Assembly: GCA_902798815.1 (NCBI GenBank)
Contig: CADBYH010000001.1
Span: forward strand, 5,554 to 69,553
Reading direction: 5' to 3'
Length of the DNA: 64,000 nt
From: an uncultured Erysipelotrichaceae bacterium
Lineage (GTDB): Bacteria; Bacillota_I; Bacilli_A; RF39; UBA660
A program made the translations under genes and the position numbers. Every line of letters begins with the position of its first letter. The stretch's first letter is position 1. The notes under the pieces were generated by a model, which saw nothing but the letters and a program-made list of their open reading frames with translations, was not told where the DNA came from and ran no database searches. Of this stretch, positions 1-57,929 are shown piece by piece.

Positions 1-1
1 A

Positions 2-1444: not shown

Positions 1445-1452
1445 GTGATAAT

Positions 1453-2274: not shown

Positions 2275-2276
2275 TC

Positions 2277-2306
2277 AAGAATAAGTTTGTACTTATTCTT
2301 TTTTTA
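2277..2306 (+). terminator. Rho-independent terminator after mutM
   Basis: Stem AAGAATAAGT / ACTTATTCTT with loop TTGT, followed by a T-run. Confidence 0.7.
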
Positions 2307-2349
2307 CACTTATATTGATATAATCATTATAGGAGTGTGAGACTTTTAT

Positions 2350-3759: not shown

Positions 3760-3790
3760 AAAATATTGTTCATTTGAACAATATTTTTTT
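3760..3790. terminator. bidirectional terminator between convergent pyk and gmk
   Basis: Near-perfect palindrome AAAATATTGTTCA TT TGAACAATATTTT, flanked by an A-run on one side and a T-run on the other. Confidence 0.75.
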
Positions 3791-4482
3791 TATATCTTAT
3801 CAGCAATTCCAGTATTATCAAATTCATCATTTATTAACATCTCATGAATCTCTTCTTCCTTAGTATCAAGGAAAACTTCTTCAATACGATCAACTCTACA
3901 TTTTTCAGCTTTAATTATAGATTCAATTTTATCTACAGCATTTTCTATTTCATCATTAACGACGACATAGTTATATTTTGTTACTTCATTAACCTCTTTA
4001 TATGCAGCATTAAATCTTTTTATTATTTTTTCATTAGTTTCAGTACCACGACCTTTAAGTCTTTTAACTAACTCTTTTAATGATGGTGGCATAATAAATA
4101 TAAATAAAGCTTCAGGAATAAGTTTTTTAATATTATTAGCTCCTTCAATCTCTATTTCTAATATTACATCTATACCTTTTTTAATTTTATCTTTTATAAA
4201 CTCTCTAGGGGTACCATAGAAATTTCCTGCATAGTTTGTATATTCTAAGAAATAGTCTTCTTTAATTTTATCTTTAAACTCTTTTTCTGATAGATAATAG
4301 TAATTAACACCATCAATTTCTCCTTTTCTAGGTTTTCTACTAGTAGCAGAAACAGATAACCATCTATTACTTGAATCATTTTTTAATAGCTCTTTTATAA
4401 TAGTTCCTTTACCAGCGCCTGAAGGAGCACTAATAACAATAATTTGCCCAGTATTCTTTTTTCTAATCATTTGATTTATCAC
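3790..4482 (-). CDS. gmk: guanylate kinase
   Basis: P-loop ISAPSGAGKGT followed by SVSATSRKPRKGEIDGVNYYY. It has a short C-terminal extension relative to typical Gmk proteins of about 205 aa. Confidence 0.9.
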   Translation of the reverse strand: MINQMIRKKNTGQIIVISAPSGAGKGTIIKELLKNDSSNRWLSVSATSRKPRKGEIDGVNYYYLSEKEFKDKIKEDYFLEYTNYAGNFYGTPREFIKDKIKKGIDVILEIEIEGANNIKKLIPEALFIFIMPPSLKELVKRLKGRGTETNEKIIKRFNAAYKEVNEVTKYNYVVVNDEIENAVDKIESIIKAEKCRVDRIEEVFLDTKEEEIHEMLINDEFDNTGIADKI

Positions 4483-5608
4483 CTCTATAAATTATTCTAT
4501 TAAATTCTTTCTTTACCAAATTATCATTTGTAATAATATCATAAATCTTTGTGGTTTCTATTTCATAGTCCAACATTGAGTCTTTTTCTCTAGTTATTTT
4601 ACTAATAATAGGAACATCTATTTCTTTTTTAATTTTATTTAAGTAATTTCTTCCTTTATTATCAAATCCTAATATCCTAATATACTTAATTTTCTTAAAA
4701 CTATTTGCTTTATCTTTAGTAAAATCACATAATATATGTATTAACATTCTACGTATTTTATTATAAGTATAACGTTTACTTTTAATAGCCATAATAAGTT
4801 CATCAACACTTTTAACATCATTAATAACTTTTTTAAGTTTCTTATCAATGCCTTCATCTATAGTTTGATAAATTGATAAATCCTCAGTTATAATTTTATA
4901 TTTTAAAATGTTAAAATAGTCTTCTAAAAAATGCATATTATTAAAATATTCAATTTCCATATCAGGAACATAACCATTAATTGATTTACCTTCTTTTAGT
5001 GCCTTTCTAATTGCAGAAGCACTACCTAAATCATTTAAATCATTATTATGATAATTATCAAGTCTTTTTATTGTTTCATATTTTATATCAAATTTATTTT
5101 CTAAAATAGTTTTTATATAACTCACTCCAAGTAGATCATTCGGAGTAATTATTTTTTTATTAGTTAAATCAAATATTGCATTAGATATTGCAGTAGGGTA
5201 GTTGTTTCCCAATTTTGAATATATTTTAACTAATTTATCAAAATCTTCATTATCAAGTTGTGTTTTAGCAATTATCTCTAAAGTATTAATATCATCAGAT
5301 TCACTTCCAAATATAATTTTATCTACTTTTAATTTATTTAAGATACATAATGCTCCATAACTAAAAAAATCAGCAGATTGAGTAGCGAATGAAAAAGGTA
5401 GTTCTATTACTAAATTAACCCCCATATTTAAGGCAATTTCACATCTTTTCCATTTGTCTATAATTGAGACATCTCCTCTTTGTGTAAAATTACCATTCAT
5501 AACTAAAACGATTGCATAGTCAGGATATTTTTCTTTAATAGTATTTAAATGATATAAATGACCATTTGTAAAAGGATTATATTCTGCAATAATACCTATA
5601 CTCTTCAT
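4463..5608 (-). CDS. tmcAL: nucleotidyltransferase of the UPF0348 / tRNA(Met) cytidine acetate ligase family
   Basis: N-terminal HIGH-like motif GIIAEYNPFTNGHLYHL. The 381-aa length and layout match this family. Overlaps gmk by 20 nt. Confidence 0.7.
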   Translation of the reverse strand: MKSIGIIAEYNPFTNGHLYHLNTIKEKYPDYAIVLVMNGNFTQRGDVSIIDKWKRCEIALNMGVNLVIELPFSFATQSADFFSYGALCILNKLKVDKIIFGSESDDINTLEIIAKTQLDNEDFDKLVKIYSKLGNNYPTAISNAIFDLTNKKIITPNDLLGVSYIKTILENKFDIKYETIKRLDNYHNNDLNDLGSASAIRKALKEGKSINGYVPDMEIEYFNNMHFLEDYFNILKYKIITEDLSIYQTIDEGIDKKLKKVINDVKSVDELIMAIKSKRYTYNKIRRMLIHILCDFTKDKANSFKKIKYIRILGFDNKGRNYLNKIKKEIDVPIISKITREKDSMLDYEIETTKIYDIITNDNLVKKEFNRIIYRGDKSND

Positions 5609-5804
5609 AATATCCCTCTTTTCTTTGACATGTATTTTATCATAATTCTGGAGTTTTTACAATTGTCTAAAACAATAACTTCTAAATGCTGTTATAATAT
5701 GTAAATGATATTAATAATATATAATGTAAAGTATGTGTTATTTGCATAAAATTATAATAAATAGTATGTAAATATGATATAATTTGTTTAAATGGAGGGA
5801 TTAG

Positions 5805-6881
5805 ATGAAAGTTATTATTGTAGCTGGTGGAACAGGTGGACACATCTATCCCGCAATGGCAATTATTAGAAAGATAAAAGAAAAAGAAAAAGATTCAAAA
5901 TTTTTATATATAGGAACAACAGATAGAATGGAAAAAGACATTATTCCAAAAATGGGAATTGATTTTGTTGGAATTGAGATGACCGGATTAAATAGAAAGA
6001 ATATATTTTCAAACTTTAAAGTGTTTAAAAGATTTAAACAAGCGGTTAAAAAAGCAGAAGAAGAAATAAAAAAATTTAAACCTGATATTGTTATAGGAGC
6101 AGGAGGATATATTACTGCACCAGTTTTATATGCTGCACATAAATTGAATGTTCCAACACTAATTCATGAGCAAAATTCAATACCAGGAATATCTAATAAA
6201 TTTATCAGTAATTTTGCAGATAGAATTTGTGTTTCACTTCCAAATAGTATGAAACTATTTCCTAAAGATAAAGTATGTTATACAGGAAATCCAAGAAGTG
6301 AAGAAATTATCAATGTAAAAGCATTAAAAAAGAGTAAAATTGGTTTTTCTGAAAACAAAAAACTAGTTGTTGTTGTAATGGGATCATTAGGAAGTACAAC
6401 CATGACTAAAAAAATAAAAGAATTAATACCAGGTTTTAATGATAAGAATTATCAAGTGTTAATCATAACTGGAAAAGCATATTATGATGATTATAAAGAT
6501 CTTAAAATAAATGATAACGTTCAAATAGTTCCATTTATGGATAATTTAATAAATTTGCTTAAAGATACTGATTTAATTATATCAAGAGCAGGAGCATCAA
6601 CAATATCAGAAATAACAGCAATCGGACTTCCTGCAATATTAGTACCATCACCATATGTTACTAATAATCATCAGTATAAAAACGCCAAAGAATTATCTGA
6701 CAGTGGAGCATGTATCATTGTAAGTGAAGAAGAATTCTCAAAAGAAAGAATAATTAAAGAAATTGATAAATTATTTGATAATAAAGAAGCATATGAGGAA
6801 ATGTCTAAAAACAGTAGAAAACTAGGTATAGATGATTCTGCAACAAGAATATATGAAGAAGCTAGAAAGATAATTAGGTGA
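5805..6881 (+). CDS. murG: undecaprenyldiphospho-muramoylpentapeptide beta-N-acetylglucosaminyltransferase
   Basis: N-terminal AGGTGGHIYPA motif, a GT28 two-domain layout and an RAGASTISE motif. RBS GGAGGG lies upstream. Confidence 0.92.
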   Translation: MKVIIVAGGTGGHIYPAMAIIRKIKEKEKDSKFLYIGTTDRMEKDIIPKMGIDFVGIEMTGLNRKNIFSNFKVFKRFKQAVKKAEEEIKKFKPDIVIGAGGYITAPVLYAAHKLNVPTLIHEQNSIPGISNKFISNFADRICVSLPNSMKLFPKDKVCYTGNPRSEEIINVKALKKSKIGFSENKKLVVVVMGSLGSTTMTKKIKELIPGFNDKNYQVLIITGKAYYDDYKDLKINDNVQIVPFMDNLINLLKDTDLIISRAGASTISEITAIGLPAILVPSPYVTNNHQYKNAKELSDSGACIIVSEEEFSKERIIKEIDKLFDNKEAYEEMSKNSRKLGIDDSATRIYEEARKIIR

Positions 6882-6887
6882 TTGATA

Positions 6888-7796
6888 ATGGATAAAATTA
6901 TTGAATTAATAAAAGAAAAAAATATAGGAAAAATTGAAGAAAATGTATCATTAAAAAAATATACTACCTATTGTTCAGGAGGAAAAGCAAGAGCAATAGT
7001 ATATCCTAAAGATATTCCATCATTAGTTGAATTATTAAAAATAATTAAAGAAAATAAAATTAAAAGTAAAATAATAGGTAATGGTTCAAATCTATTATTT
7101 AGTGATAAATTGTATGATGGGATTTTAATTAAATTAAATGAATTTAATAAAATAAAATTTATAGGAAAAAATAAAGTACGTGTTGGAGCAGGATATCCAT
7201 TAATAAAACTAAGTTTACAAACAGCAAAAAAATCACTTACAGGACTAGAATTTGCATCAGGAATTCCTGGTAGTGTAGGTGGAGCAGTATACATGAATGC
7301 TGGTGCATATAAATCAGATATGGGATATGTTGTTGAAAGTGTAAAAGTATTAACTCCAGAACTAAAAATAATAAATTTAGTTAATAAAGAATTAGATTTT
7401 CATTATAGATCATCATTTCTTCAGAAACATCCAGGATATATTTGTTTAGAAGTACTTATTCAATTAAAAAATGGTAAAAGAGAAGCAATAGAAGAAGTTA
7501 TCAAAGAAAGAAGAAAAAGAAGAATTGAATCTCAACCATTAGAATACCCTAGTGCTGGAAGTGTTTTTAGAAATCCTGAAGATAATTATGCAGGCAAGTT
7601 AATAGAAGATTGCGGCATCAAAGGTTTAAAACATGGTGGAGCAATGATAAGTGAAAAACATGCAAATTTCATTGTTAATTATAAAAATGCTAAAAGTAGT
7701 GATATAAAATATTTAATAGATTTAGCACATGACAAAGTATTAGAAAACTATGGAATAGATATGAAAATAGAACAAGAATTTGTAAATTGGGAGTAG
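6888..7796 (+). CDS. murB: UDP-N-acetylenolpyruvoylglucosamine reductase
   Basis: FAD-binding domain motifs (GGKARAIV, IGNGSNLL) and C-terminal PSAGSVFRNP. The ORF track starts at a TTG at 6882. The ATG at 6888 has better spacing from the RBS AGGTGA. Confidence 0.9.
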   Translation: MDKIIELIKEKNIGKIEENVSLKKYTTYCSGGKARAIVYPKDIPSLVELLKIIKENKIKSKIIGNGSNLLFSDKLYDGILIKLNEFNKIKFIGKNKVRVGAGYPLIKLSLQTAKKSLTGLEFASGIPGSVGGAVYMNAGAYKSDMGYVVESVKVLTPELKIINLVNKELDFHYRSSFLQKHPGYICLEVLIQLKNGKREAIEEVIKERRKRRIESQPLEYPSAGSVFRNPEDNYAGKLIEDCGIKGLKHGGAMISEKHANFIVNYKNAKSSDIKYLIDLAHDKVLENYGIDMKIEQEFVNWE

Positions 7797-7798
7797 TT

Positions 7799-8488
7799 AT
7801 GGCAAAAAAAGTAGTCAAAAAAACTAAAATAAAATTATTTAGTTTATTAATAGTTCTTTTAGTTTTAACAGGACTATTTTTTGGCGTTAAATGTATTTTA
7901 AATGCTAGAACAAAAAATATTATTGTTAAAGGAACTACCTATTTAAAAGATGATTATATCCTTGAACTAGCAGGTGTAAAAAACTACCCGGGTTTTATTT
8001 CTTTAAATACCTGGAAATGTGAAAAGAAATTAAATAAATCAGATTACATTTCTAAATCGAAAATAAAAAAGAAACTTAATTTTACATTGGAACTAATTAT
8101 TAATGAAAATAAACCATTATTTTATGATACAAATACAAACAAATATGTATTATCAAATAATGAAACCGCAAAAGAAGATAATGTAAATATTAATTTTAGA
8201 ATTCCACGTTTATTAAACTATGTTCCTGATAAAAAATATGAGAAATTTAAACTTGGAATGAATAAGATTGAGAAAAACACATTATCAAAAATAAGTGATA
8301 TTGAATATAAACCAAATGATTATGATAAAGATAGATTCTTACTATATATGGATGATGGGAATTTAGTCTATTTAACTCTAACAAAATTTAAATTAATAAA
8401 TCACTATAATGAAGTAGTAACTCAATTAGAAGGACATAAAGGAATTCTTTACCTAGATAGTGGAAATCATTTTCAAATAATGGAATAA
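7799..8488 (+). CDS. divIB: cell division protein DivIB/FtsQ
   Basis: One N-terminal TM helix followed by a POTRA-like segment (IIVKGTTYLKDDYILELAGV), located after murB. The ATG at 7799 follows RBS GGGAG; the alternative ATG is at 7787. Confidence 0.7.
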   Translation: MAKKVVKKTKIKLFSLLIVLLVLTGLFFGVKCILNARTKNIIVKGTTYLKDDYILELAGVKNYPGFISLNTWKCEKKLNKSDYISKSKIKKKLNFTLELIINENKPLFYDTNTNKYVLSNNETAKEDNVNINFRIPRLLNYVPDKKYEKFKLGMNKIEKNTLSKISDIEYKPNDYDKDRFLLYMDDGNLVYLTLTKFKLINHYNEVVTQLEGHKGILYLDSGNHFQIME

Positions 8489-8537
8489 TATTTTATTATT
8501 TCTTTTTTTTTGATATTATATTTATAGGAGAATAAAT

Positions 8538-9881
8538 ATGAGTAAAGAGTATTTGAAATATATATTTTTATTTATTTATTATTTTGTATGTCTAACTACA
8601 GTTTATTTTGTGTTTAGAATGGATGCTTATAGTAATTATGCCTTTAGTTATGGTATAGTAACAGGTAGTATTCCATATATAGATTTTAACCCGATAGTAC
8701 CACTATTTGGTCCGTTTCTATATAGTGTATTATTAATATTTAATCATTCAATAATTGTTTTTTATTTAGAACAAACAATTCTTTTATTAATAATGACATA
8801 TCTATTATTTAAGATATTAGATGAGAAAGCATGGATAGTAGTAGTATGTTTATTTTCACCATTAATAATTCCATTTGCTTATTGCTTATTTCCAGGATAT
8901 AACTTTCTAATATTATTTGAATTAGTATTATTACTATATCTAAATAAGTATAATAAAAGTGATAAATTAATAGGATTAGTATCAGGAATAACTATTATTA
9001 CTAAACATAACATAGGTATATTTATATTTTTAATTAGTTTACTTTTTAGTATTAAAGATAAAAAAAAATTATTAAATAGATTTTTATTTGGATTAATTCC
9101 AGGAGTATCGTTTTTATTTATAATACTTTTATATGGAAATCTATATGAATTTATAGATTTATGCTTGCTTGGAACATCTGATTTTATAAATAATATAACC
9201 ATAGACTTAATGTCTTTAGTATTATTAATAATATTTATAGTAGTAATGGTTATAAAGTTTATTAAAGATAAGAATAAAAATATAAGTTACTTTTATTTAT
9301 TAACGTATCTATTAGTGGTATTCCCATTATTTGATACCTATCATGTTTCTTTATTTTTAATGTTTTTGGTAATAGTATTTTTATATAATAGTAATTTTAG
9401 TATTAAGAATAAATATATACCAATAATATCATTTGTAATAATAAATATATTTATAGTTTTTTGGTTTATGTTGGGAATAGATTATTATAAAAGATTTAGA
9501 ATATATAATTACAATAATTTTGAAATAGTGTTATTAGAAAAGAAGGAAAAGGAAAATGTTGATAACTTAAATAAATATCTAAAAAATAAAAATTATACTA
9601 TTATAAGTATTCCTTCCAAAACTACATTTTTATTAATTTCTAATAATAAAAAGGTTGATATTTTTTTAGTACTTTTTAGAGGTAATTATGGAAGTAAAGG
9701 AAAATATAAGGTTATGGAGAAAATAAATAATAAAAAAGATTATTATTTTGTAGTAGATACTAGCATTAATTGTAAAGGTAAAGAGAATTGCCAATATTTA
9801 GAAGAAATACAAGAATATATAAGAAAGAAATATAAATTAGTTAAAGAAATAGACTATTATAAAATTTATTATAAAAAGTAA
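8538..9881 (+). CDS. polytopic membrane protein, tandem paralog 1 of 5 (possible GT-C-like glycosyltransferase/polymerase)
   Basis: About 11-13 hydrophobic segments and a soluble C-terminal domain of about 110 aa. Shared family motifs: FSYGIVTGSIPYIDFNP, PGYNF, LIGLVSG..IITKHNIGI, LCLLG, DTYHVS, GNYGSKG, and a C-terminal YKIYYKK. Confidence 0.6.
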   Translation: MSKEYLKYIFLFIYYFVCLTTVYFVFRMDAYSNYAFSYGIVTGSIPYIDFNPIVPLFGPFLYSVLLIFNHSIIVFYLEQTILLLIMTYLLFKILDEKAWIVVVCLFSPLIIPFAYCLFPGYNFLILFELVLLLYLNKYNKSDKLIGLVSGITIITKHNIGIFIFLISLLFSIKDKKKLLNRFLFGLIPGVSFLFIILLYGNLYEFIDLCLLGTSDFINNITIDLMSLVLLIIFIVVMVIKFIKDKNKNISYFYLLTYLLVVFPLFDTYHVSLFLMFLVIVFLYNSNFSIKNKYIPIISFVIINIFIVFWFMLGIDYYKRFRIYNYNNFEIVLLEKKEKENVDNLNKYLKNKNYTIISIPSKTTFLLISNNKKVDIFLVLFRGNYGSKGKYKVMEKINNKKDYYFVVDTSINCKGKENCQYLEEIQEYIRKKYKLVKEIDYYKIYYKK

Positions 9882-9895
9882 ATGGAGGAGATAAT

Positions 9896-11239
9896 ATGAA
9901 TAAAAAAAGAATAATTAAATATATATTATTATTTCTATTCTTTTATGTATCCCTGGTATTTATATTTACTTTATCAAGAAGTGATACATTTGTTAACTTT
10001 GGATTTAGTTATGCAATATCCAAAGGACAAATACCATATAGGGATTTTAATATGGTAATAACTCCATTTGCACCTTTTTTATATTCTATAGGTTTATTAA
10101 TGTGTAATAATATTTTAGTATATTATTTAGAACAAGCATTATTGTTAACATTGTTATTTTATTATATTGATAAAATACTTGGTAAAAAGAGTATATTATT
10201 TTTGTTGATTCTAATAATTCCATATCCTATTGCAATGTCATCTATTTTATTTCCGGGATATAATTATATTGTAGTATTATTGCTTGTTATGTTTATTTAC
10301 TATTTCAAAAATAATAAAAATGACTACCTATTGGGATTAATTTTAGGCTTTATATTTTGTACAAAACAAACTATGGGTATTGTTTTATTTGTTCCTACTT
10401 TTTATTTTTTAATAAAAGATAGAGAAAAATTTAAAAAGATGTTTATTGGATACATTATTCCTATTATTATTTTGTTTATATACTTGATTATTACAAAGAG
10501 TTTATATGTTTTTTATGACTTGTGTTTTTTAGGCCTGTTTGATTTTAATAAAAGTAACAATAATATAGATATTTATTATTTGTTATTATTTATTCTAGGT
10601 GTTGTTTATTTGCTGTTTAGAATTATAAAAGATAAGAATAATATTTTATTATATTATATACTTTTATATAGTTTGGTAGTGTTTCCAATAGTTGATTATT
10701 ATCATACATCTATTTTTTTGATAATAATATTTTTAATTATTCTTGATGATTATAATTTAAAAAGAGATATATTTAAATATATTGTTATTATAATAGCAGC
10801 CATTTCTGTTTTATGGCTTTTCGTAACTTATTATTTTTTGAGACCTATATCTATAAGAAATTATAATAATTTTTCATTAGTAATAAATGAGAAATCATAT
10901 AATGATAATAGTTATAAATTAATAAAATATACTAGTAGATTAGATAAAAAAGTAATATTTTTTATGAGAGGATCAGAAAACTTTTTTTATAAGATTACAT
11001 GTGATAAAAAATTAAATTATTATGATTTGCCAAATTATGGTAATTATGGATATAATGGTATAGAAAAAATTAAGAATAGGATTAAGAATGAACATGATTG
11101 TTATTTTGTAATTGATAGAGTTCTTGTTAAAAACAATAGTTCAGAGCAACAATATATAAAGGAACTTGGACAGTACGTAATTAAACATTCTAGATTAATA
11201 AAATCAATTGGATTATATGATATTTATTACAAGGAGTAA
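9896..11239 (+). CDS. polytopic membrane protein, tandem paralog 2 of 5
   Basis: Same motif set: FSYAISKGQIPYRDFNM, PGYNY, LLGLILG..FCTKQTMGI, LCFLGLFDFN, DYYHTS, GNYGYNG, YDIYYKE. Confidence 0.6.
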   Translation: MNKKRIIKYILLFLFFYVSLVFIFTLSRSDTFVNFGFSYAISKGQIPYRDFNMVITPFAPFLYSIGLLMCNNILVYYLEQALLLTLLFYYIDKILGKKSILFLLILIIPYPIAMSSILFPGYNYIVVLLLVMFIYYFKNNKNDYLLGLILGFIFCTKQTMGIVLFVPTFYFLIKDREKFKKMFIGYIIPIIILFIYLIITKSLYVFYDLCFLGLFDFNKSNNNIDIYYLLLFILGVVYLLFRIIKDKNNILLYYILLYSLVVFPIVDYYHTSIFLIIIFLIILDDYNLKRDIFKYIVIIIAAISVLWLFVTYYFLRPISIRNYNNFSLVINEKSYNDNSYKLIKYTSRLDKKVIFFMRGSENFFYKITCDKKLNYYDLPNYGNYGYNGIEKIKNRIKNEHDCYFVIDRVLVKNNSSEQQYIKELGQYVIKHSRLIKSIGLYDIYYKE

Positions 11240-11241
11240 GT

Positions 11242-12552
11242 ATGGAGATTATTAAAAAGAATTATAAATATTTGTTGTTATTCATCTTTTTTATAAGCGT
11301 ATTGATATTTTTTGGATTTAATAATATGGATAATATTTGGAACTATGGTTTTAGTCATGCTATAAGAATTGGAGAAGTACCATATAAAGACTTTAATATT
11401 ATATCAACCCCATTGTTTTCTTTTATAATGTCATTAGGTTTATTTATATATGATAGTTATATTGTATTTGTTTTAGAACAGGCTTTATTATGTACGTTAT
11501 TATTTTGCTTTTTAGAAAAAATGTTTTCAAAAAACTCAACACTCGTATTAGCTTTTTTTTCATTTCCAATTTTTTATTCATTGTTTCCTAATTATAATTT
11601 TTTAGTTTTATTACTTATGACAATACTTTTATTTTTAGAAAATAATAATAAAGAAAGTGAATATTTAATAGGATTTGTACTTGGTTTATTGATTCTTTCT
11701 AAACACACTATAGGTATAATGATTTTGATATGTAGTTTGATATCATGTTTTGATAAAAAAAAGATAATTAAAAGAATATGCAGCAGCTTTATACCGATAT
11801 TGTTTTTTGTTATCTATTTATTTTTAACGAATTCAATGAATAGTTTTATTAATTTATCTATATTGGGATTATTTGACTTTAATAAAAATAATTTCTCAAT
11901 ATCATTTATATATATAATAATATTACTGGCAATTGGAATTCATTTACTTGTTATGTTTAAAAAAGATATAAATAATAGAAATAATTATTATTTATTATCA
12001 TCATTTGCATTTGTTATTCCAATATGTGACTCATTTCATTTATGTTATCTAATAATTATATATGTTATGGTGATTTTATTAAATTATAATATTAAACCAT
12101 CTAATACAATTATGTATGTATCGGTATTAATTGTTTTTTTAACAATAATACTTAATATAATAGTCAATTATAAAGTGTATAAAAGAATTGATTTATGTAA
12201 ATTAAATCATTTTGAAGGTTTTATAATTGTTAAAGATAATAGGGATTTTTTGGATGATATAAATAGACAATATAGAAGTGGGAATAATAATTTTATGTTT
12301 TCTTTTTCTAATATGTTTTTTGATATTGCTTCTGATCATAAAATCACATATTATGATGTACCATTAAATGGCAATTATGGTTATAAAGGGATGGATATGA
12401 TGAAAACAAAGATTGATTCACTTCATAATATATATTTTTATATAGAAGACAATAAAAATGTTCAATATGCAAGAAAAATATATAAGTATATTAAAGAAAA
12501 AGGTGATAAAAAAGCAACAATTTATAATTACGAGGTATATTACATTAAATAA
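11242..12552 (+). CDS. polytopic membrane protein, tandem paralog 3 of 5
   Basis: Same motif set: FSHAIRIGEVPYKDFNI, PNYNF, LIGFVLG..ILSKHTIGI, LSILGLFDFN, DSFHLC, GNYGYKG, YEVYYIK. Only 2 nt separate it from paralog 2. Confidence 0.6.
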   Translation: MEIIKKNYKYLLLFIFFISVLIFFGFNNMDNIWNYGFSHAIRIGEVPYKDFNIISTPLFSFIMSLGLFIYDSYIVFVLEQALLCTLLFCFLEKMFSKNSTLVLAFFSFPIFYSLFPNYNFLVLLLMTILLFLENNNKESEYLIGFVLGLLILSKHTIGIMILICSLISCFDKKKIIKRICSSFIPILFFVIYLFLTNSMNSFINLSILGLFDFNKNNFSISFIYIIILLAIGIHLLVMFKKDINNRNNYYLLSSFAFVIPICDSFHLCYLIIIYVMVILLNYNIKPSNTIMYVSVLIVFLTIILNIIVNYKVYKRIDLCKLNHFEGFIIVKDNRDFLDDINRQYRSGNNNFMFSFSNMFFDIASDHKITYYDVPLNGNYGYKGMDMMKTKIDSLHNIYFYIEDNKNVQYARKIYKYIKEKGDKKATIYNYEVYYIK

Positions 12553-12599
12553 TATAATTATTGTGATATAATTGATAATAGGAAAGGAGAATAAAATAT

Positions 12600-13931
12600 A
12601 TGAAGAAGATATTACTAGAAAACTATAAATATATTTTATTCTTTATTTTTGTTTTATTTTTGTATTCATATGTATTAGTACCTGATTTAGTATTTGATGC
12701 AACATGGGAATTTGGAATGGCTCATGCTATAAAAATAGGTGAAATCCCATATTTGGATTTTAATACAGTATCAACTCCTTTTTATATTATGTTTCATTCT
12801 ATTTTTTTGCATATAAGTGATTCATTTTATTTTTATTTATTTATTAATGGAATAATATGTACAATTATTTATGCTTTATATGACAAAATAAATGATAATA
12901 ATTCATTTCTTTGTTTATCAATTTCACTTTTATTATTATATAGAATATTTATTCCATCATATAATTTTATGGCTTTTTTTATAATTGTATTATTAATATA
13001 TCTTGAAAAAAAGCAAAAAAATGATTATCTTATTGGATTTGTTTTAGGTTTACTTTTCTTAACTAAACATACGATAGGTTTACCAGTAATTGTTTTATCT
13101 ATGTTTGGACAAAGAGATTATAAGAAAGTAATTAAAAGAATTATAGGAATTATAATTCCTTGTTTTATCTTTTTGATGTTTTTATTTATTACAAATAGTT
13201 TTAAAAGTTTTTTAGATTTGTGTATATTAGGACTATTTAATTTTAATAGTAATAATAAGAATTATATTAATGTTTTTTTAATAATGAGTATTATTGTATT
13301 AATAATATCTTTATTTCACATAGTAAGATATAAAGATATTAAATACTATTATTTAATTGGTGCATTTTCATTTGTAATACCAATATGCGATCTTTCTCAT
13401 TTTTCATTTTTATTTGCATTATTTATGTTATGTGAGTTTGGAAATGTTCCTGGTAGAATAAAATATAGTAATATTATTTCTTTTATAATAATAATAATTC
13501 CAATTATATTTCAATTAATGTTATATAATTATTATTTTAAAAATATAACCTATATGAATGATAAGCATTTTAAATACTGTTTAGTTAACAAAAATAGTTA
13601 TTCCGAATTTAAGAGTATTTTGAATAAATATAAACAATATAAAAGTAATTCTACAATCATTGATTTTTCAGCAATTAAATATGATATTATTTTGGATAAA
13701 AAAATAAATTATTATAATATATTATTAACTGGTAATTATGGATTAAATGGCTCTAAGGTGCTTATTAAAGATATAAATAAATCTAAAGATCATTACTACA
13801 TTATTACGAAGAATATTTATTATAATAGAAATTATATATCACAAATAGATTATGATGTTATTGATTATATATATAGTAATTTAGAAAAAGTCGAGGAGGA
13901 CAATTTATATTATGTTTACTACAAAAAATAA
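12600..13931 (+). CDS. polytopic membrane protein, tandem paralog 4 of 5
   Basis: Same motif set: MAHAIKIGEIPYLDFNT, PSYNF, LIGFVLG..FLTKHTIGL, LCILGLFNFN, DLSHFS, GNYGLNG, YYVYYKK. Confidence 0.6.
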   Translation: MKKILLENYKYILFFIFVLFLYSYVLVPDLVFDATWEFGMAHAIKIGEIPYLDFNTVSTPFYIMFHSIFLHISDSFYFYLFINGIICTIIYALYDKINDNNSFLCLSISLLLLYRIFIPSYNFMAFFIIVLLIYLEKKQKNDYLIGFVLGLLFLTKHTIGLPVIVLSMFGQRDYKKVIKRIIGIIIPCFIFLMFLFITNSFKSFLDLCILGLFNFNSNNKNYINVFLIMSIIVLIISLFHIVRYKDIKYYYLIGAFSFVIPICDLSHFSFLFALFMLCEFGNVPGRIKYSNIISFIIIIIPIIFQLMLYNYYFKNITYMNDKHFKYCLVNKNSYSEFKSILNKYKQYKSNSTIIDFSAIKYDIILDKKINYYNILLTGNYGLNGSKVLIKDINKSKDHYYIITKNIYYNRNYISQIDYDVIDYIYSNLEKVEEDNLYYVYYKK

Positions 13932-15246
13932 AAAAAAAATATTTATTTATATAATTTCGTTTATATTTATATTAATATATTCTTTGTTTTTTGTGCCTTT
14001 AACGGCTAATGAAATATGGAATTATGGATTTAGTTATGCAATTGTAAAAGGTGAAATATTATATAATGATTTTAATTTAATAATAGGACCTTTTTATCCT
14101 TTATTTATGAGTATTTCTTTATTAATTAAAAATTGCTTATTTAATTATCTGTTTTTTAATTCTATAATTATTTTAATGGCATTAATTACTTTATATAAAA
14201 TGTATGATAAAAAAGTTATTATTTCCATTATTATACTTTTGTTTTTTCCTTCTTTAGTTTGTCCGTCATATAATCAGTTTATAATATTTTTAATAATATT
14301 CATTGCATATTTAGAAAAATCGGAAAGTGGGTATAAAGATATACTCATAGGGATTTTATTGTCTATTAGTTTTTTTACTAAACAGAATATAGGTATTTTT
14401 CTTATTTTACCTTCAATATTTTTTTATAAGAAAAACAATAATAAGGAAAGAATTATGGGTTTTATTATTCCTACAATTATTTTTCTATTATATTTTATTA
14501 TTACTAAGTCTTTAAAAAATTATATAAATCTTTGTATATTAGGTTTATTAGAGTTTGGTAATAAGAATAACTTAGTTATTGTGTCTTGTTTAATTGCTTT
14601 TATAATAATCTTAATAATATCAGTTGTGTGTTTGCTAAAGAATAAGTCTAATATATCATTATATTATTATTTAATGGGATACTTGGTTATCCTACCAATA
14701 TTTGATTATATACATTTATATTTTGTTATATTTATTTTTTCGTTATTAATTATAGATGTTTATAAATTTGATGTATTAGATATGAGAGTAATAAGAGTTT
14801 GTTTATATTTTCTAATATTAAATATATTGATCATTGAATCTCAAAGATTATCGCTATCGACATTTAAATATCCTAATAATATAAATCATTTACAACTAAG
14901 ATATATTCCAAGTAATGAATTGAAATATTATAAAAAAGTTATTAATTATTTAAATGGAGAAGATTTTTTGATTTATTCTGACGTTAATTATTTGTATAAA
15001 ATTGCTTTAGATAAAAAAATAAGTAATTATGATATTGTTAATTATGGGAATAATGGTATTGGTAGTAAGGGTAAAATTGTTGACTTTATTAAAAAAAACA
15101 AGCAATTATATTTAATTCCTAATAATCTATCAAAGTGTATTGAAGATAATATATGTCAGGTTGATAAAGAAGGGTATGATTATATAATTAATAATTTGAT
15201 ATTAATTGATAGTATTGGAGAGTTTTATGTTTATGAGAATAAATAG
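13912..15246 (+). CDS. polytopic membrane protein, tandem paralog 5 of 5
   Basis: Same motif set: FSYAIVKGEILYNDFNL, PSYNQ, LIGILLS..FFTKQNIGI, LCILGLLEF, DYIHLY, GNNGIGSKG. Overlaps paralog 4 by 20 nt. RBS GAGGAGGA lies upstream. Confidence 0.6.
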   Translation: MFTTKNKKKIFIYIISFIFILIYSLFFVPLTANEIWNYGFSYAIVKGEILYNDFNLIIGPFYPLFMSISLLIKNCLFNYLFFNSIIILMALITLYKMYDKKVIISIIILLFFPSLVCPSYNQFIIFLIIFIAYLEKSESGYKDILIGILLSISFFTKQNIGIFLILPSIFFYKKNNNKERIMGFIIPTIIFLLYFIITKSLKNYINLCILGLLEFGNKNNLVIVSCLIAFIIILIISVVCLLKNKSNISLYYYLMGYLVILPIFDYIHLYFVIFIFSLLIIDVYKFDVLDMRVIRVCLYFLILNILIIESQRLSLSTFKYPNNINHLQLRYIPSNELKYYKKVINYLNGEDFLIYSDVNYLYKIALDKKISNYDIVNYGNNGIGSKGKIVDFIKKNKQLYLIPNNLSKCIEDNICQVDKEGYDYIINNLILIDSIGEFYVYENK

Positions 15247-16648
15247 AAAAAAAATATTCTTAATAATTGTTTTTATAATTTATATATCTATAATTAGCTT
15301 TATGTTTTTTTACCATGAAAATTGGCGTGATGAAGCTCAAGCATATCTAATATGTAGAGATATGAATTTTTTTCAAATAATAAAAAATGTACATTATGAA
15401 GGACATCCTATTTTTTATTATTCAATATTATATCCTCTAGTAAAATTAGGAGCAGGTCCAAAAATTGTAAATATATTATCTATTATATTTATGTCTATTG
15501 CCGTATTTATTATATTGTTTCTATCTAAGTTAAATAATATCCAAAAATTATGCTTTATAGTATCATATCCTGTGTTATTTGAATTTAGTGTTGTTGGTAG
15601 AAGTTATTCATTGATATTTTTGTTGTTAACGTTAGTAGGTTTAATATATCAATATAAAGATGAATATCCAATTATTTATGCTATTTTATTGGGTTTATTG
15701 CTTAATACTCATTTATTAATGATTGGTTTTGTAGGTATTTGCACATTGTTTTATATAATTGATATGGTTAAGGATAAAAAGTATAATACTAAAAATATAA
15801 TTGGATTAATTATTATTGGTATTTTTGGAGTGTTATTGTTAATACAATTTGTACCAATTTTTATATATAAAGATGGATTAAATACTGGAACTGATTTTAG
15901 TATATTTGAAATTATATCTTATTTTATATTATCTTTATATTATAAATCTTTGAATACCAGTTTTATTAAGTTGGCTATATCTATTATATTTACTAACTTA
16001 ATCTATATGGTTATATATAAAGCAGATAAAAAAGTTTTTTTAATAATTCTAATGAGTTATATTTACATTTCAGTATTACTTTCATACATATTTAATGCGA
16101 TAAGTATTTATAATATTGCTTTAGTATATTCAATTATGCTTTGTTCTTTATTAATGATTGATAGAAAAATATTTGATAATAAACATATAACAATTTATTT
16201 ATCAATATTATCAATATTATCATTAGATTATATAGTATTATCAATAAATAATGAATTAAAGTATAATTATTCTAATAGTATAGAGGTATCAAAATATATA
16301 AATGATAACATTGATAAAAATGCAACAATTATATGTAATTGTGATCATATGTGTTCATCAATAGTTCCTTATGTAAAAAATAAGTTTTATCATACTAATT
16401 CAAAAAAATTCTTTACTTATATAGTATGGACAAGGGATAGAGATTTAGTTCCTGATATGAATGATATATATAATTTTATTGATAATAGTAATGATGATTT
16501 ATATTATATATATACAGGTTATAATAAAGAGGATATTGATATAGTTAATTCATTAAAGAAAAAATATTTGATAGAAAATATATATGAAATATATAAATAT
16601 TCTTATACAGATCGAGAATATATAATATATAAGATAAATAAAGATTAA
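15227..16648 (+). CDS. polytopic membrane protein of a different family, GT-C-like (ArnT/PMT-type first-loop acidic motif)
   Basis: Multi-TM protein with HENWRDEAQAY in the first loop, resembling the DE-containing loop-1 motif of GT-C glycosyltransferases, and a soluble C-terminal tail. Start taken at ATG 15227 after RBS GGAGAG. Alternative starts are 15206 and 15233. Confidence 0.5.
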   Translation: MFMRINRKKIFLIIVFIIYISIISFMFFYHENWRDEAQAYLICRDMNFFQIIKNVHYEGHPIFYYSILYPLVKLGAGPKIVNILSIIFMSIAVFIILFLSKLNNIQKLCFIVSYPVLFEFSVVGRSYSLIFLLLTLVGLIYQYKDEYPIIYAILLGLLLNTHLLMIGFVGICTLFYIIDMVKDKKYNTKNIIGLIIIGIFGVLLLIQFVPIFIYKDGLNTGTDFSIFEIISYFILSLYYKSLNTSFIKLAISIIFTNLIYMVIYKADKKVFLIILMSYIYISVLLSYIFNAISIYNIALVYSIMLCSLLMIDRKIFDNKHITIYLSILSILSLDYIVLSINNELKYNYSNSIEVSKYINDNIDKNATIICNCDHMCSSIVPYVKNKFYHTNSKKFFTYIVWTRDRDLVPDMNDIYNFIDNSNDDLYYIYTGYNKEDIDIVNSLKKKYLIENIYEIYKYSYTDREYIIYKINKD

Positions 16649-16792
16649 TTGTGATTTTATATATTTTTATCTTATTATAATTTAGATATGTATTTCAAAT
16701 AATACTGCTATATATAGATATTTAATGGAAAATAAATATAAAAAAATCTTTAAAAATAAAAAGGTTAATTATTATAGTCAATGTAATAAGTA

Positions 16793-16821
16793 TTGGCAAA
16801 AAAACTAAAGTATTGTATAAT
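16793..16821 (+). promoter_or_regulatory. sigma-A-type promoter upstream of ftsA
   Basis: TTGGCA (16793-16798), a 17-nt spacer, then TATAAT (16816-16821), about 28 nt before the ftsA start. Confidence 0.5.
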
Positions 16822-16848: not shown

Positions 16849-18045
16849 ATGGATGATATTTATACTGGAATAGATATTGGAACTGATAGTATCAAAATTG
16901 TTGTATGTGAAAAAACAAATGATAAATATCATGTTTTAGCATCAATATCTTCTAAGTCAGTAGGAATTGAATACGGATTTATAAAAGATATGAAAGCTGC
17001 TGTAAGTAGTATTAAAGAAGCAGTTAAAAAAGTTAATTCAATTCTTGGAATAAAAATTAATAAAGTAATTGCATGTGTTCCACCGGTAGGATGCCAAATG
17101 GATATTGTAAGTGGATCATGTGATATTATTGATTATAATGAAATAACTGGAAAAGATGTTAGTAATGTATTATTAGATGCTTTAAGATATGAAAGACCAG
17201 AAAATTATGAGTTGGTAACTGCTATGCCAATTAATTTTACAATAGATGATGAAGAAAGTGTTAAAGATCCAAAAGGATTAAAAGGATCAAAATTAGATAC
17301 AAGAGTAGTGGTAAGTACTACAGAAAAGGAACCATTATATAGAATTTTAGAAGCATTAAAACTAAGTGGATTAGAAGTTATTGATATATGTTATTCATCA
17401 TTTGGTGATTATTATGCTTTAAGTAGTAAAAAGTATGATAATCTTGTAGGAGCAATTATTAATATAGGTGAAGAATCAACAAATGTATCAGTATTTAATA
17501 GAGGAATTCAAATAAAAAATGGAGTAGTTCCAATAGGAAGTAAAAGTGTCGATAAGGATTTAACATATGTATTTAAATCTAAACTAAGTGAATCAAGAGA
17601 AATAAAAGAAAATTTTGCTGTGGCCTTATCAACATATGCAGATTCCAATGATATTTGGACAATAAAAATAGATAAAACTACAACAAAAGATATAAATCAA
17701 GTAGGAGTTTCTAAAGTAGTTGAAGCAAGAGTTAGAGAGATTCTAAAACTTGCCAAAAATGAAATAAAAAACTTAACAAATAGAGAAATTCGTTATATAA
17801 TTATAACAGGTGGTTTGACCGAACTTGCAGGATTCCAATATCTAGTAGAGCAAGAATTTGGGTTTATTGCCAAAATAGGAAATACAAATACAACTGGAAT
17901 AAGACATAATAAATATAGTAGTTGTTATGGAATTATAAAGTTCTTTAATAACAAATTAGAATTGAGACAAAAAAAATATAGTATGTTTGATATAGAAGAA
18001 ATAGAAAAATTGCGAAGTGCAAAAACAGAACTAAATGGTGATTAA
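16849..18045 (+). CDS. ftsA: cell division protein FtsA
   Basis: Actin-like ATPase motifs ([24 protein letters not shown]), immediately upstream of ftsZ. The ATG at 16849 is well spaced from GGAG at 16836-16839. The track start at 16840 abuts the RBS. Confidence 0.9.
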
Positions 18046-19230: not shown

Positions 19231-19262
19231 AAATATCACTTACAAAGTGATATTTTATTTTT
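19231..19262. terminator. bidirectional terminator after ftsZ
   Basis: Stem AAATATCACT / AGTGATATTT with loop TACAA, followed by a T-run. It also serves the convergent minus-strand ORF ending at 19255. Confidence 0.75.
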
Positions 19263-19569
19263 CTAAAATAAATTCAAGTAATCTCATATCATTACCAATT
19301 AAATAGACATAATTTTCTCCCAAAGATCTTTTAAGAATCATAAGTTTATTTCTAACTATGTTATCATCAATTTCAAATATTTCTAAATAGTTTAGAATTA
19401 TATCATCAATAAAATAGAAATTATTCTCTTTAAAAACATTATATACTTTTATAAATTTATTATAATCTATATTATTTAAATAACTAACATCGTATGAAGA
19501 AAGGAGTAGATTATATTTGTTTTCATCTATATATCTTTTTAACCACATCACAAGCCACCTTACTATCAA
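19255..19569 (-). CDS. hypothetical small protein (about 97-104 aa)
   Basis: Minus-strand ORF downstream of, and overlapping, the 397-aa HTH protein. Start at 19569 or the internal ATG at 19548. No recognisable motif. Confidence 0.45.
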   Translation of the reverse strand: MIVRWLVMWLKRYIDENKYNLLLSSYDVSYLNNIDYNKFIKVYNVFKENNFYFIDDIILNYLEIFEIDDNIVRNKLMILKRSLGENYVYLIGNDMRLLEFILEK

Positions 19570-20716
19570 TTAATCCATTAACATATTTATCAGTTAATTC
19601 TTTAAGAGAAACATTATATTCTGCTTGCATATTCAAATCTGCCATAAACATAATACTATTTATATTTCCATTATTATCAACTATAGGTAATCCATTGTCA
19701 CTTAAAAATCTAATTTTTGCATAGAATTCTCCAAACGATTTAGAAAAAATTATTTTGTTTTTTTCAACATCTATTCCAATAGAACTGGCAATATCCATAA
19801 TTAGCAATTTATTATAAAAAAACTTTTTAGGATAAAAACTCAATACATTATTAATAAGTTTAATAGAAATAAGTTTTTCTTTATCTAGATTAGAAAGAGT
19901 TTCTCCGTTTTCATACTTTTTCCTAATATTATTGGAATTATATCGTAATGCCACATAAAAGTTTCTTTGATCAGTTCCATCAATGAACTTTTTACCAACG
20001 CTAAAAATATCATTATATTTAGATTCTGGTAATTTTCCTGTTTTGTTAATCTCTTCTATAAATTCTACAGTTTTATTTTTTAAGGCATCAACCTCTGAAT
20101 CATATACTAATCTTTTTTTGTGATTTACTATTCTTTTCTTTTTTGAATATTTATTTAATGTCTTTACTATTTCATTATAATCATATAATTTTTGTTCTTC
20201 TAATTTAGTAAGAATTTCACCATTTTGTTGTTTAATTTTGATTATTTTTATGCATGCAAGTAAATGATCATAATAAGATCTTTGATCAGCACCATTAGAA
20301 AAAACTCTTTCTGATACATTATTATTTAGTTTTTTTGTTTTAGGAAGTCGTTTTAATATCTCTATAGATTCAATTAATTCTGCAGCATGAGAACTTAATG
20401 TAATAGTATCTGATTTTTTTCTTTCATTTTTTTTATTAGGTTTATTTGTTTCTACTTTAATATTTAATTGTTTGAATAGAACAATTAATTTCTTATAGAT
20501 TCTATCTAAATCAAAATCAACAGCTTGTCTTGAGATATTAAGTCTATTAGCAATCTCTATTATTTTCATTTTAGCATTACCAGACTCGTCAAATCTCATA
20601 TCATAAATAATAGTTTGTTTTTTACTTAAAACTTTATGTATTTTTTCATTTAATCTCTTTTTACTAACAACTTTTGTTTTAAAAGCATCAGAAACAAAAT
20701 CATCTCTTTTTTTCAT
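19523..20716 (-). CDS. hypothetical protein with N-terminal sigma-70 region-4-like HTH and an internally duplicated module
   Basis: HTH-like segment IIEIANRLNISRQAVDFDLDRIYKKL. Two copies of an approximately 70-aa module: LP.TK..SNGADQRSYY...QQNGEILTKLEEQKL and LPESK..IDGTDQRNFY...YENGETLSNLDKEKL. Confidence 0.6.
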   Translation of the reverse strand: MKKRDDFVSDAFKTKVVSKKRLNEKIHKVLSKKQTIIYDMRFDESGNAKMKIIEIANRLNISRQAVDFDLDRIYKKLIVLFKQLNIKVETNKPNKKNERKKSDTITLSSHAAELIESIEILKRLPKTKKLNNNVSERVFSNGADQRSYYDHLLACIKIIKIKQQNGEILTKLEEQKLYDYNEIVKTLNKYSKKKRIVNHKKRLVYDSEVDALKNKTVEFIEEINKTGKLPESKYNDIFSVGKKFIDGTDQRNFYVALRYNSNNIRKKYENGETLSNLDKEKLISIKLINNVLSFYPKKFFYNKLLIMDIASSIGIDVEKNKIIFSKSFGEFYAKIRFLSDNGLPIVDNNGNINSIMFMADLNMQAEYNVSLKELTDKYVNGLIDSKVACDVVKKIYR

Positions 20717-21858: not shown

Positions 21859-22317
21859 ATGATTAGAAAGATTATAAAATTAATTATAGTTGTTTTATGT
21901 ATGGCAATAATCTTTTCATTTTCAACAGATACAGGTACTGAATCAAATAAAAAGAGTGATGGAGTAATTATTAGTATTTGTAAAACATTTATAAAACATG
22001 ATTTATCAACTAAAGAAAAGGAAAAATATATTAATAAGTACGTAAAGTTAGTTAGAAAATCAGCTCATTTTCTAATATACCTAATATTAGGAATATCAAT
22101 AATAAGTTTAATAAAAGAGTATCAAATAATTAATTCAAAGGCATTACTTATCGCAATAACCATTTCATTTTTATATGCATGTAGTGATGAAATACACCAA
22201 TTATTTGTGAATGGTAGAACAGGAAAGATAATAGATGTCTTAATAGATACTTTAGGTTCAATAGTGGGAGTATATTTATATTACTATATATATAAATTTA
22301 GGAGGAAAAAAGTATGA
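21859..22317 (+). CDS. VanZ family membrane protein
   Basis: Motifs KSAHFLIYLILG and DEIHQLFVNGRTG..DVLIDTLG are typical of VanZ-like proteins. The ATG at 21859 follows RBS AAGGTGA; the track start at 21850 is a GTG. Confidence 0.8.
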   Translation: MIRKIIKLIIVVLCMAIIFSFSTDTGTESNKKSDGVIISICKTFIKHDLSTKEKEKYINKYVKLVRKSAHFLIYLILGISIISLIKEYQIINSKALLIAITISFLYACSDEIHQLFVNGRTGKIIDVLIDTLGSIVGVYLYYYIYKFRRKKV

Positions 22318-28183: not shown

Positions 28184-28207
28184 GTGGTTGAAAGTGGTGA
28201 AAAGTGG
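28184..28207 (+). promoter_or_regulatory. putative MraZ operator: three GTGG direct repeats with 10-bp phasing
   Basis: GTGG occurs at 28184, 28194 and 28204 (tAGTGGTtg aAAGTGGTga aAAGTGGGgg). The repeats lie just downstream of a TATAAT at 28165-28170 and just upstream of the mraZ ATG. Confidence 0.6.
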
Positions 28208-28219
28208 GGGATTGATAAA

Positions 28220-29586: not shown

Positions 29587-29595
29587 GAGGATAAC

Positions 29596-29895: not shown

Positions 29896-29919
29896 ACCTA
29901 TTAGGACGTGATTTATTAT

Positions 29920-57897: not shown

Positions 57898-57929
57898 TAA
57901 TAAATAATATATTTTTATAGGTGATTATC

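Follow-up and report, generated by a model that had tools for sequence, protein, structure and literature searches.

Tandem predicted GT-C-fold glycosyltransferases in a strain-variable cassette between divIB and ftsA of RF39-type gut Bacilli

Variable glycan loci are known at fixed chromosomal sites, for example, cps of pneumococci, which is located between dexB and aliA, and the O-antigen locus of enterobacteria, bounded by galF and gnd. In Bacillus subtilis, the interval between divIB and ftsA, within the division and cell wall (dcw) gene cluster, contains ylxW, ylxX and sbp. Extracytoplasmic glycosyltransferases of the GT-C fold catalyze the last step in multi-component glycosylation systems of Firmicutes, such as CsbB/GtcA/YfhO, GtlA/GtlB, CsdAB/CD/EF and GacI-L, which decorate lipoteichoic acid, wall teichoic acid and rhamnose polysaccharides (PMC8035078). 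The GT-C(A) signature comprises a conserved transmembrane module, two juxtamembrane (JM) helices in the first outer loop, a catalytic Asp at the tip of the first of these helices (JM1), and Lys and His residues that stabilize the leaving phosphate; in PimE, where the roles of the Asp, Lys and His have been described, the latter two are K195 and H322 (PMC12041525). Here we describe six consecutive genes on the + strand, at positions 8538-16648 of a 64,000-nucleotide stretch of contig CADBYH010000001.1 from an uncultured Erysipelotrichaceae bacterium (the whole stretch is hereafter referred to as the window), which are flanked by divIB and ftsA. The first five are tandem paralogs (W1 to W5), and most likely, these and the sixth gene encode polytopic GT-C(A)-fold glycosyltransferases of two related, unannotated families. 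The paralogs would constitute a new GT-C(A) family, the genomic arrangement of which is likewise new, and we found no report of a connection between GT-C enzymes and the dcw cluster in the literature that we searched.

None of the six proteins reached the threshold of any Pfam or NCBIfam model. For PMT_2 (PF13231, gathering threshold 26.1 bits), the best score was 20.4 bits, with W2, followed by 18.5 bits with W3, and for GT87 (PF09594, gathering threshold 25 bits), W2 scored 19.7 bits. Among 43 family members, sub-threshold matches with E <0.01 were detected in 6 for PMT_2 (best E 4.9e-5) and in 7 for GT87 (best E 4.7e-5). YfhO, DUF6056/GT_STM0557 and Wzy_C/O-antigen ligase produced no match in the Pfam and NCBIfam scans of W1-W5 and the sixth protein, and sequence and profile searches of the PDB yielded nothing relevant, only spurious integrase matches with E >0.1.

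The fold assignment comes from structural models. An AlphaFold (AF2) model of W2, built on a 43-sequence alignment, has a predicted local distance difference test score (pLDDT) of 93 and a predicted template modeling score of 0.92. When this model was compared to the PDB with Foldseek, the top 19 matches were all to GT-C-fold proteins, with ArnT (5f15) first (E 9e-4, TM-score 0.55) and with ALG9, PglB (TM-score 0.50), Pmt4, ALG12, PimE, EmbA/B and PIGU (9ub7_B) among the others; the top matches have a Foldseek probability of 1.0 and TM-scores of 0.47-0.55. The AF2 model of the sixth protein (pLDDT 92) matched DPY19 (E 1e-3), followed by PglB, ALG3, Pmt1/2, EmbB and AftD. GT-C(A) enzymes are at the top for both families, in agreement with the GT-C relationship proposed in the initial annotation. 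A transporter or another non-glycosyltransferase fold was rejected because, for both models, matches to major facilitator superfamily, ATP-binding cassette and G protein-coupled receptor structures had TM-scores ≤0.15 and probabilities ≤0.25.

In the W2 model, DSSP assigns the first transmembrane helix to residues 3-23, JM1 to 31-42, JM2 to 58-67 and the start of the second transmembrane helix to residue 73; D30 is located one residue before the JM1 helix, that is, at its N-terminal tip. Under the positive-inside rule, the loop charges over the alignment indicate 11 membrane passages with the N-terminus inside, and place all conserved motifs as well as the ~130-residue C-terminal alpha/beta domain outside the membrane. 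The outer location initially predicted for the conserved loop-1 and GN.G motifs agrees with this topology, and the proteins are polytopic, as expected, with 11 passages according to both the model and the positive-inside rule rather than the suggested range of about 11-13.

Residue conservation was counted over 131 distinct full-length copies from ~50 loci. D30 is retained in 127 of these and is replaced by Glu in two and by N-E in another two, including W5, whose N-E is also present in its ortholog from L041 (contigs of relatives and of other samples are denoted by L numbers). W1 keeps the corresponding D29 (D30 in W2 numbering) together with all invariant residues. Nine residues never vary among the 131 copies (Y122, K157, G161, F217, P264, H270, G382, N383 and G385), and the topology puts K157 and H270 at the outer or mid-membrane level. 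In hhalign comparisons, D30 aligns with D35 of the RDEAQAY motif that is invariant in the family of the sixth protein, and K157 aligns with H162 of that family; D30 also aligns with D34 of a third family that occurs in the same genomic slot (see below). To judge by the models, this pattern fits an active, outward-facing transferase that would depend on a sugar linked to a lipid phosphate.

The five tandem genes, of 436-447 codons, were recognized as homologous from the start, and the open reading frames (ORFs), the alignment, BLAST and the family hidden Markov model (HMM) all confirm this: the proteins are 28-37% identical in pairwise comparisons (BLAST scores of 137-241 bits), and each scores 414-518 bits against the family HMM, far beyond chance. 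The five-protein alignment has 42 invariant columns. The shared motif set, initially described as fixed, is not strictly so, with deviations in W1, W3 and W5. In W5, ILY replaces (I/V)PY, the loop-1 Asp gives way to N-E, and the C-terminal domain reads GNNGIGS; in W1, YGI takes the place of AI; and the C-terminal YYK is absent from W3 and W5. A neighbor-joining tree combined with best-hit typing delineates four old subtypes, of which clade A (W1/W2 type), found in most arrays, usually occupies the first gene position and clade B (W5 type) the last, with clades C (W3/W4) and D accounting for the remaining copies. By the same typing, orthologs of W2 with 44-66% identity are present in most loci. 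Recent amplification was rejected because the paralogs belong to old clades common to several species, in accord with the earlier view of an old array. A word-indexed search retrieved 95 relatives, all unnamed or annotated as 'hypothetical', from metagenome-assembled genomes (MAGs) of Bacilli, Mollicutes and Tenericutes, and an exhaustive profile search yielded 2670 clusters (at 50% identity) with E <=1e-3, including 819 clusters with E <=1e-30.

Scanning GTDB species representatives with clade A orthologs identified 39 loci, a set that is biased toward arrays with a clade A copy; these loci were annotated with the HMMs of both families and with the dcw proteins of the window. They carry the labels Bacilli, Tenericutes, Mycoplasma sp. 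CAG:877, Ca. Faecimonas and Erysipelotrichaceae (MAGs), and originate from goat, rumen, rabbit, chicken and human gut. Ca. Faecimonas corresponds to the GTDB genus CAG-877 of the order RF39 (PMC8035907). The divIB gene is directly upstream in all 36 loci with upstream sequence, and the order murG-murB-divIB-[array]-ftsA-ftsZ is found in all 30 loci with both flanks. The complete loci encompass 2-5 full-length copies each: two in 6 loci, three in 15, four in 3 and five in 6. Where genes have been called in relatives, 9-53 nt separate the divIB stop codon from the start of the first paralog. The divIB-ftsA interval holds 2.7 to ~10 kb of GT-C genes, and look-ups by protein identity showed the same locus arrangement. 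Accordingly, this gene set occupies a fixed slot between divIB and ftsA throughout an RF39-type clade of gut Bacilli, with contents that vary between species, and the implied insertion peculiar to this genome is not borne out. The possibility that relatives carry the same genes elsewhere, which had been raised as an argument against a link with the dcw cluster, was rejected for the close family, which is in this position in all loci examined. The sole exception is the most distant member found, P0093 (470 amino acids), which is encoded outside the dcw cluster; in L007 (1-11413), its gene is the last in a series of unannotated genes, one of which encodes a T2SSE/pilus-type ATPase. Truncated paralog fragments are present inside otherwise intact arrays in L012 (11581-12279, 232 amino acids) and L017 (9287-9799, 170 amino acids) and point to ongoing gene decay and turnover.

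Within the species represented by the window, the entire cassette is replaced between strains. In other samples, contigs of this species code for DivIB, MurB and Fpg proteins with the same sequences as those of the window. In blastn comparisons covering 5-8.5 kb of the left flank and 1-7.3 kb of the right flank, those of these contigs that carry a two-gene allele (L049-L052 and L057) are 99.2-99.5% identical to window positions 1-8487 and 98.8-99.2% identical from position 16812 onward, up to 7.3 kb. Between these flanks, a 2.7-kb allele encoding two paralogs, of 447 and 448 amino acids, replaces the 8.3-kb six-gene cassette of the window, and blastn detects no nucleotide similarity between the two. 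The two proteins, one of clade B and one of clade C, with no clade A copy, are 30-36% identical to W1-W5. The left breakpoint directly follows the divIB stop codon, with the 99.5% identity to L049/L050 ending at 8487, whereas the right breakpoint is at about 16812-16814, immediately before the TATAAT and the ribosome-binding site of ftsA. The promoter-like site of ftsA straddles this breakpoint, its -35 element lying in the variable part and its -10 element, along with the ribosome-binding site, in the conserved flank. The six-gene allele itself is found at 100% identity in L055. Thus, the species possesses at least two non-homologous cassette alleles. A fixed pathway of five specialized paralogs, as initially envisaged, does not hold, given that conspecific strains whose flanks match at 99% have only two copies, which differ greatly from those of the window.

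Many short contigs of the same species end at or just after divIB (L053, L054 and L058-L062), which is consistent with assembly breaks caused by mixed strains at the variable cassette. In L076 (Logan SRR34912291), from another species, recognized through its DivIB (P0328), a 1-nt deletion in a T6-A-G-A5 tract splits the first paralog (6735-8095) into ORFs of 99 and 340 amino acids; this may be either a real inactivation or an assembly error.

The sixth protein had been assigned to a different family. It is indeed separate by sequence, and yet is a remote homolog of W1-W5, with an hhalign probability of 97.9% (E 6e-13) over ~270 columns. We identified 37 homologs of this protein, and the family is present only in a subclade (the window, L001, L013, L038 and L041). 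Its loop-1 DE motif resembles the motif of the PMTs, and one distant homolog is named Dol-P-Man protein mannosyltransferase in UniRef. The preferred start codon of the gene is ATG 15227, preceded by a GGAGAG Shine-Dalgarno sequence, whereas the alternative TTG 15206 has none; independent gene calls on the identical contig L055 gave the same six genes, the sixth from ATG 15227 (473 amino acids). With this start, the spacers of 14, 2 and 47 nt (W1-W2, W2-W3 and W3-W4, respectively) and the 20-nt overlaps at the last two junctions, reported previously, are reproduced by both the ORF listing and the L055 gene calls.

Other genes share this slot in relatives. A third unannotated polytopic family, of ~470 amino acids, with the loop-1 motif D-x-D-Y-F-W-H-I-K-A-G-E, is encoded last before ftsA in several species; hhalign matches its first transmembrane helix and loop 1 to the paralog family (92.5%), the invariant D34 falling on D30. 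The slot of L001 contains a true DUF6056/GT_STM0557-type GT-C protein (E 2.6e-85), encoded by a gene separate from the paralogs. Some relatives additionally encode a conserved FAD/NAD flavoprotein of the PRK07208 family (511-524 amino acids), with an amine-oxidase or UDP-galactopyranose-mutase-like fold, which may be a sugar- or lipid-modifying partner. In one species (L047, 14013-16528), the array-ftsA interval holds genes for a pssA-like CDP-alcohol phosphatidyltransferase and an LtaS-like membrane protein with a sulfatase domain, which may point to the involvement of a polymer that resembles teichoic acid and is anchored to lipid.

Co-transcription of the array with divIB is plausible from the sequence, considering that every gene of the array has a Shine-Dalgarno sequence, that the gaps after divIB in relatives are short, and that no terminator-like site was found on the + strand between window positions 5500 and 19500; the last result agrees with the earlier observation that no terminator follows divIB. 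The claim that ftsA has its own promoter fares less well: a TTGGCA-17-TATAAT site is indeed present, but the scan as a whole is uninformative, with 151 promoter matches against 154 expected in this AT-rich (19-25% GC) DNA. The ftsA start at ATG 16849 follows from the gene calls and the Shine-Dalgarno spacing, and the Pfam/NCBIfam scan places ftsZ 3' of ftsA. With a total GC content of 18-20%, the array falls below its flanks; because the GC content at third codon positions (GC3) is unchanged, the difference is due to codon positions 1 and 2, that is, to amino acid composition. A foreign origin inferred from composition was rejected, GC3 being equal to that of the flanks.

By analogy with characterized enzymes, we consider it probable that the array encodes polyprenyl-phosphate-sugar-dependent GT-C enzymes that build or decorate a strain-variable envelope glycan. 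The chemistry we propose is modeled on ArnT, PimE, the PMTs and the Emb enzymes. The Asp at the JM1 tip (D30 in W2, the DE motif in the sixth protein) would activate the acceptor hydroxyl, and the invariant K157 and H270 would bind the phosphate of the donor, a polyprenyl-phosphate sugar whose synthesis would be encoded elsewhere in the genome. Each enzyme would transfer one sugar at the outer face of the membrane, and several enzymes together would extend, branch or decorate an envelope glycan, perhaps, one anchored in the wall or in the membrane; the product would be a strain-specific surface structure. Transcription would probably proceed by read-through from murG-murB-divIB.

Several observations weigh against such a role. 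The structural matches are moderate, with TM-scores in the range given above and Foldseek E values of ~1e-3, and the placement of D30, K157 and H270 relative to ArnT or PimE comes from secondary structure and profile alignment. Neither a GT-A (GT2) polyprenyl-phosphate-sugar synthase gene nor a GtrA flippase gene was seen among the scanned ORFs of the window and the called genes at the window ends, nor within 10 kb of the array in at least 8 relatives; the contigs covered include L001, L004, L006, L050, L063 and L073. Furthermore, replacement was seen in one species, whereas two others, traced through their DivIB (P0300 and P0328), show a single array type in 10 contigs each, with the 1-nt deletion in L076 as the sole difference, and the composition gives no sign of import, with GC3 of 0.12-0.15 in the cassette compared to 0.08-0.14 in the flanking genes.

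RF39 bacteria are predicted to retain peptidoglycan while lacking the standard teichoic-acid pathways and most penicillin-binding proteins (PBPs) (PMC10868615), which makes a non-canonical polymer plausible in this group. A bolder extension, which we advance tentatively as one possibility, is that RF39-type Bacilli make their main secondary envelope glycopolymer wholly on the outer face, through a modular series of small GT-C enzymes comparable to those with which mycobacteria synthesize arabinan and mannan. Being encoded in the dcw operon and expressed by read-through, this assembly line would be coupled to septal wall synthesis, and the exchangeable cassettes would define serotype-like strain types, relevant to phage receptors, in a gut lineage that is prevalent but uncultured.

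Among the alternatives, the one that survives best, while still unlikely, is that these are protein glycosyltransferases akin to PMT, DPY19 or PglB that modify secreted or surface proteins instead of a polymer. The best structural matches of the sixth protein, DPY19 and PglB, are protein glycosyltransferases; the similarity of its DE motif to that of the PMTs and the UniRef name of its distant homolog point the same way, as do the large proteins encoded nearby, apparently surface proteins, that either have no family match or contain DUF6273. Conversely, PMT_2 is matched below threshold only, neither a MIR domain nor any other motif for binding an acceptor peptide was detected, and the stepwise synthesis of a glycan would account for arrays of 2-5 paralogs more readily than would protein modification. 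The characterized PMT_2-type GT-C enzymes of Firmicutes, moreover, act on wall polymers (PMC8035078).

Somewhat less likely still is a direct role in peptidoglycan synthesis or the divisome, in which lipid II or nascent septal peptidoglycan would be the substrate that the array enzymes glycosylate or to which they link a polymer; the dcw location would then have a mechanistic basis beyond mere convenience for expression. Such a role would account for the position of the array after divIB and before ftsA-ftsZ, invariant in all loci examined, for the proximity of the first paralog to the divIB stop codon, and for the predicted loss of most PBPs and of the standard teichoic-acid pathways in RF39 (PMC10868615). 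However, the conserved position can also be explained by inheritance within a highly syntenic cluster, the copy number varies from 2 to 5, and the distant member in L007 is located outside the dcw cluster, near genes similar to those of pili and type II secretion systems. Wholesale exchange within one species for genes whose products are only 30-36% identical and include no clade A copy is unexpected for a core divisome function.

It appears improbable that the array encodes Wzy/WaaL-like polymerases or ligases, or oligosaccharyltransferases, that use oligosaccharides linked to undecaprenyl diphosphate (Und-PP). PglB, which uses an Und-PP-glycan donor, is one of the structural matches (TM-score 0.5), EpsG gave weak matches in 2 of 43 family members, and, in the window as in relatives, a Wzx/MurJ-type flippase gene is present 3 kb downstream of ftsZ; but most of the top structural matches use monophosphate-linked donors, and WaaL, RodA and other GT-C(B) structures are absent from the top matches, as are Wzy_C from the domain matches and genes for an initiating phosphoglycosyltransferase, GT-A or GT-B from the locus and its vicinity. 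Finally, non-catalytic GT-C-fold scaffolds or receptors, similar to PIGU of the glycosylphosphatidylinositol transamidase, are a very remote prospect: PIGU is among the fold matches and the loop-1 Asp is lost in W5 and its ortholog, but the nine invariant residues and the near-universal Asp form an outer-face conservation pattern typical of an active site, and in W5 itself a Glu directly follows the position of the lost Asp.

Table 1. Features of the divIB-ftsA slot in the window and genes that share the slot in relatives
Feature	Sequence	Position	Strand	Remarks
murG	window	5805-6881	+	upstream neighbor; murB, then divIB next
divIB/ftsQ	window	7799-8488	+	POTRA_1 Pfam match, E 1.2e-7; conserved left flank; TAA stop directly before the variable cassette
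Replaceable cassette	window	8489-16811	+	divIB stop to ftsA -10 box; from blastn and junction alignments
W1, paralog 1, 447 aa	window	8538-9881	+	clade A type; subclade duplicate of the W2 type; AGGAG Shine-Dalgarno
W2, paralog 2, 447 aa	window	9896-11239	+	clade A type; most widely conserved copy; modeled protein; putative catalytic D30 with K157 and H270
W3, paralog 3, 436 aa	window	11242-12552	+	clade C type
W4, paralog 4, 443 aa	window	12600-13931	+	clade C type
W5, paralog 5, 444 aa	window	13912-15246	+	clade B type; N-E replaces the loop-1 Asp; 20-nt overlap with W4
Sixth gene, 473 aa	window	15227-16648	+	second GT-C(A) family (predicted); loop-1 motif with H30, D35-E36 and Q38 invariant
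Promoter-like TTGGCA-17-TATAAT	window	16793-16821	+	before ftsA; consensus match only
ftsA	window	16849-18045	+	TIGR01174, 200 bits; likely start ATG 16849, 398 aa; conserved right flank
Third family	L004	11344-12756		
Third family	L017	14088-15494		
Third family	L013	18319-19737		
Third family	L022	14338-15765		
Third family	L073	9660-11072		
DUF6056 and/or flavoprotein slot genes	L001	14029-15264, 18082-19617		
DUF6056 and/or flavoprotein slot genes	L013	16778-19737		
DUF6056 and/or flavoprotein slot genes	L022	12797-15765		
DUF6056 and/or flavoprotein slot genes	L041	16658-18232		

The dcw genes are split in the window: mraZ, mraW and a PASTA-domain class B PBP are encoded 9 kb downstream of ftsZ (28184-32067), and an FtsW/RodA-type gene (57921-59009) is located a further 26 kb on. 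We saw no mraY, murD or murE among the scanned ORFs of the window. About 3 kb downstream of ftsZ, and in the same place in relatives, there is a Polysacc_synt gene of the Wzx/MurJ/SpoVB type (22314-23720), which could equally encode the lipid II flippase. Directly downstream of ftsZ, an ORF of 397 amino acids without a Pfam match (19523-20716, - strand), conserved in the same species (L050), is overlapped at its start by a small ORF (19255-19569). In a related species, the position right after ftsZ is occupied by a Flg_new/DUF285 protein of 1218 or 1414 amino acids, depending on the sample (L063 and L064, respectively). Five large ORFs of the window lack any Pfam match (36262-39159, 965 amino acids; 59093-62515, 1140; 55992-57884, 630; 45573-47204, 543; and 33547-34908, 453) and may encode lineage-specific surface or envelope proteins. 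Two window proteins (42070-43995 and 48914-50170) contain a C-terminal DUF6273 domain, and another (47204-48487) is a fusion of a DHH phosphoesterase domain to an N-terminal NADAR domain.

Although RF39-type Bacilli are widespread gut bacteria of humans and animals, the literature covered here includes no cultured representative, and next to nothing is known of their cell envelope. A large unannotated GT-C family at one recognizable locus provides candidates for the enzymes that replace or decorate the wall polymers of these bacteria. The hosting of a hypervariable glycan cassette, as we interpret the array, by one of the most conserved bacterial operons bears on surface diversity, phage pressure and the expression of division genes. 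On the practical side, the divIB-ftsA interval is directly usable as a marker for typing strains from metagenomes, and metagenome assemblies of these organisms are prone to break at divIB.

Comparison with the interval in B. subtilis shows that the same position in the dcw cluster tolerates accessory genes for membrane proteins, although the Bacillus genes are small and unrelated to those described here. With the cps and O-antigen loci, the cassette shares conserved flanks, sharp breakpoints, non-homologous alleles within a species, and a position that is kept across species while the content varies. In contrast to those loci, the cassette contains no genes for nucleotide-sugar synthesis, Wzx/Wzy, an initiating transferase, GT-A or GT-B; its flanks are essential division genes of a single operon; and its GC3 is the same as elsewhere.

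At the protein level, the predicted fold, the JM helices in the first outer loop, the conserved Asp at the JM1 tip and the outer soluble domain are shared with ArnT (GT83), PimE (GT87), the PMTs (GT39), EmbA/B/C and the ALG enzymes; the conserved Lys and His may be counterparts of K195 and H322 of PimE; and, as in embCAB or the ALG/PIG series, several paralogs probably act on one glycan. Unlike these enzymes, the array proteins are small (~440 amino acids), have their own C-terminal domain with an invariant G-N-x-G, give no PDB sequence match, and are encoded in tandem, in 2-5 copies, inside the dcw cluster of low-GC Bacilli. The multi-component systems of Firmicutes likewise show weak or absent Pfam signals, several of their members having PMT_2 or no domain at all (PMC8035078), and create strain-specific surface structures. 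In those systems, the GT-C gene normally adjoins that of a GT-A partner, whereas here, only GT-C genes are present, 2-6 in a row; neither a location in the dcw cluster nor allelism of whole cassettes has been described for them. By analogy, the multi-component glycosylation systems of Firmicutes appear to be the closest functional counterparts of the divIB-ftsA arrays, with the GT-C assembly lines of mycobacteria also comparable.

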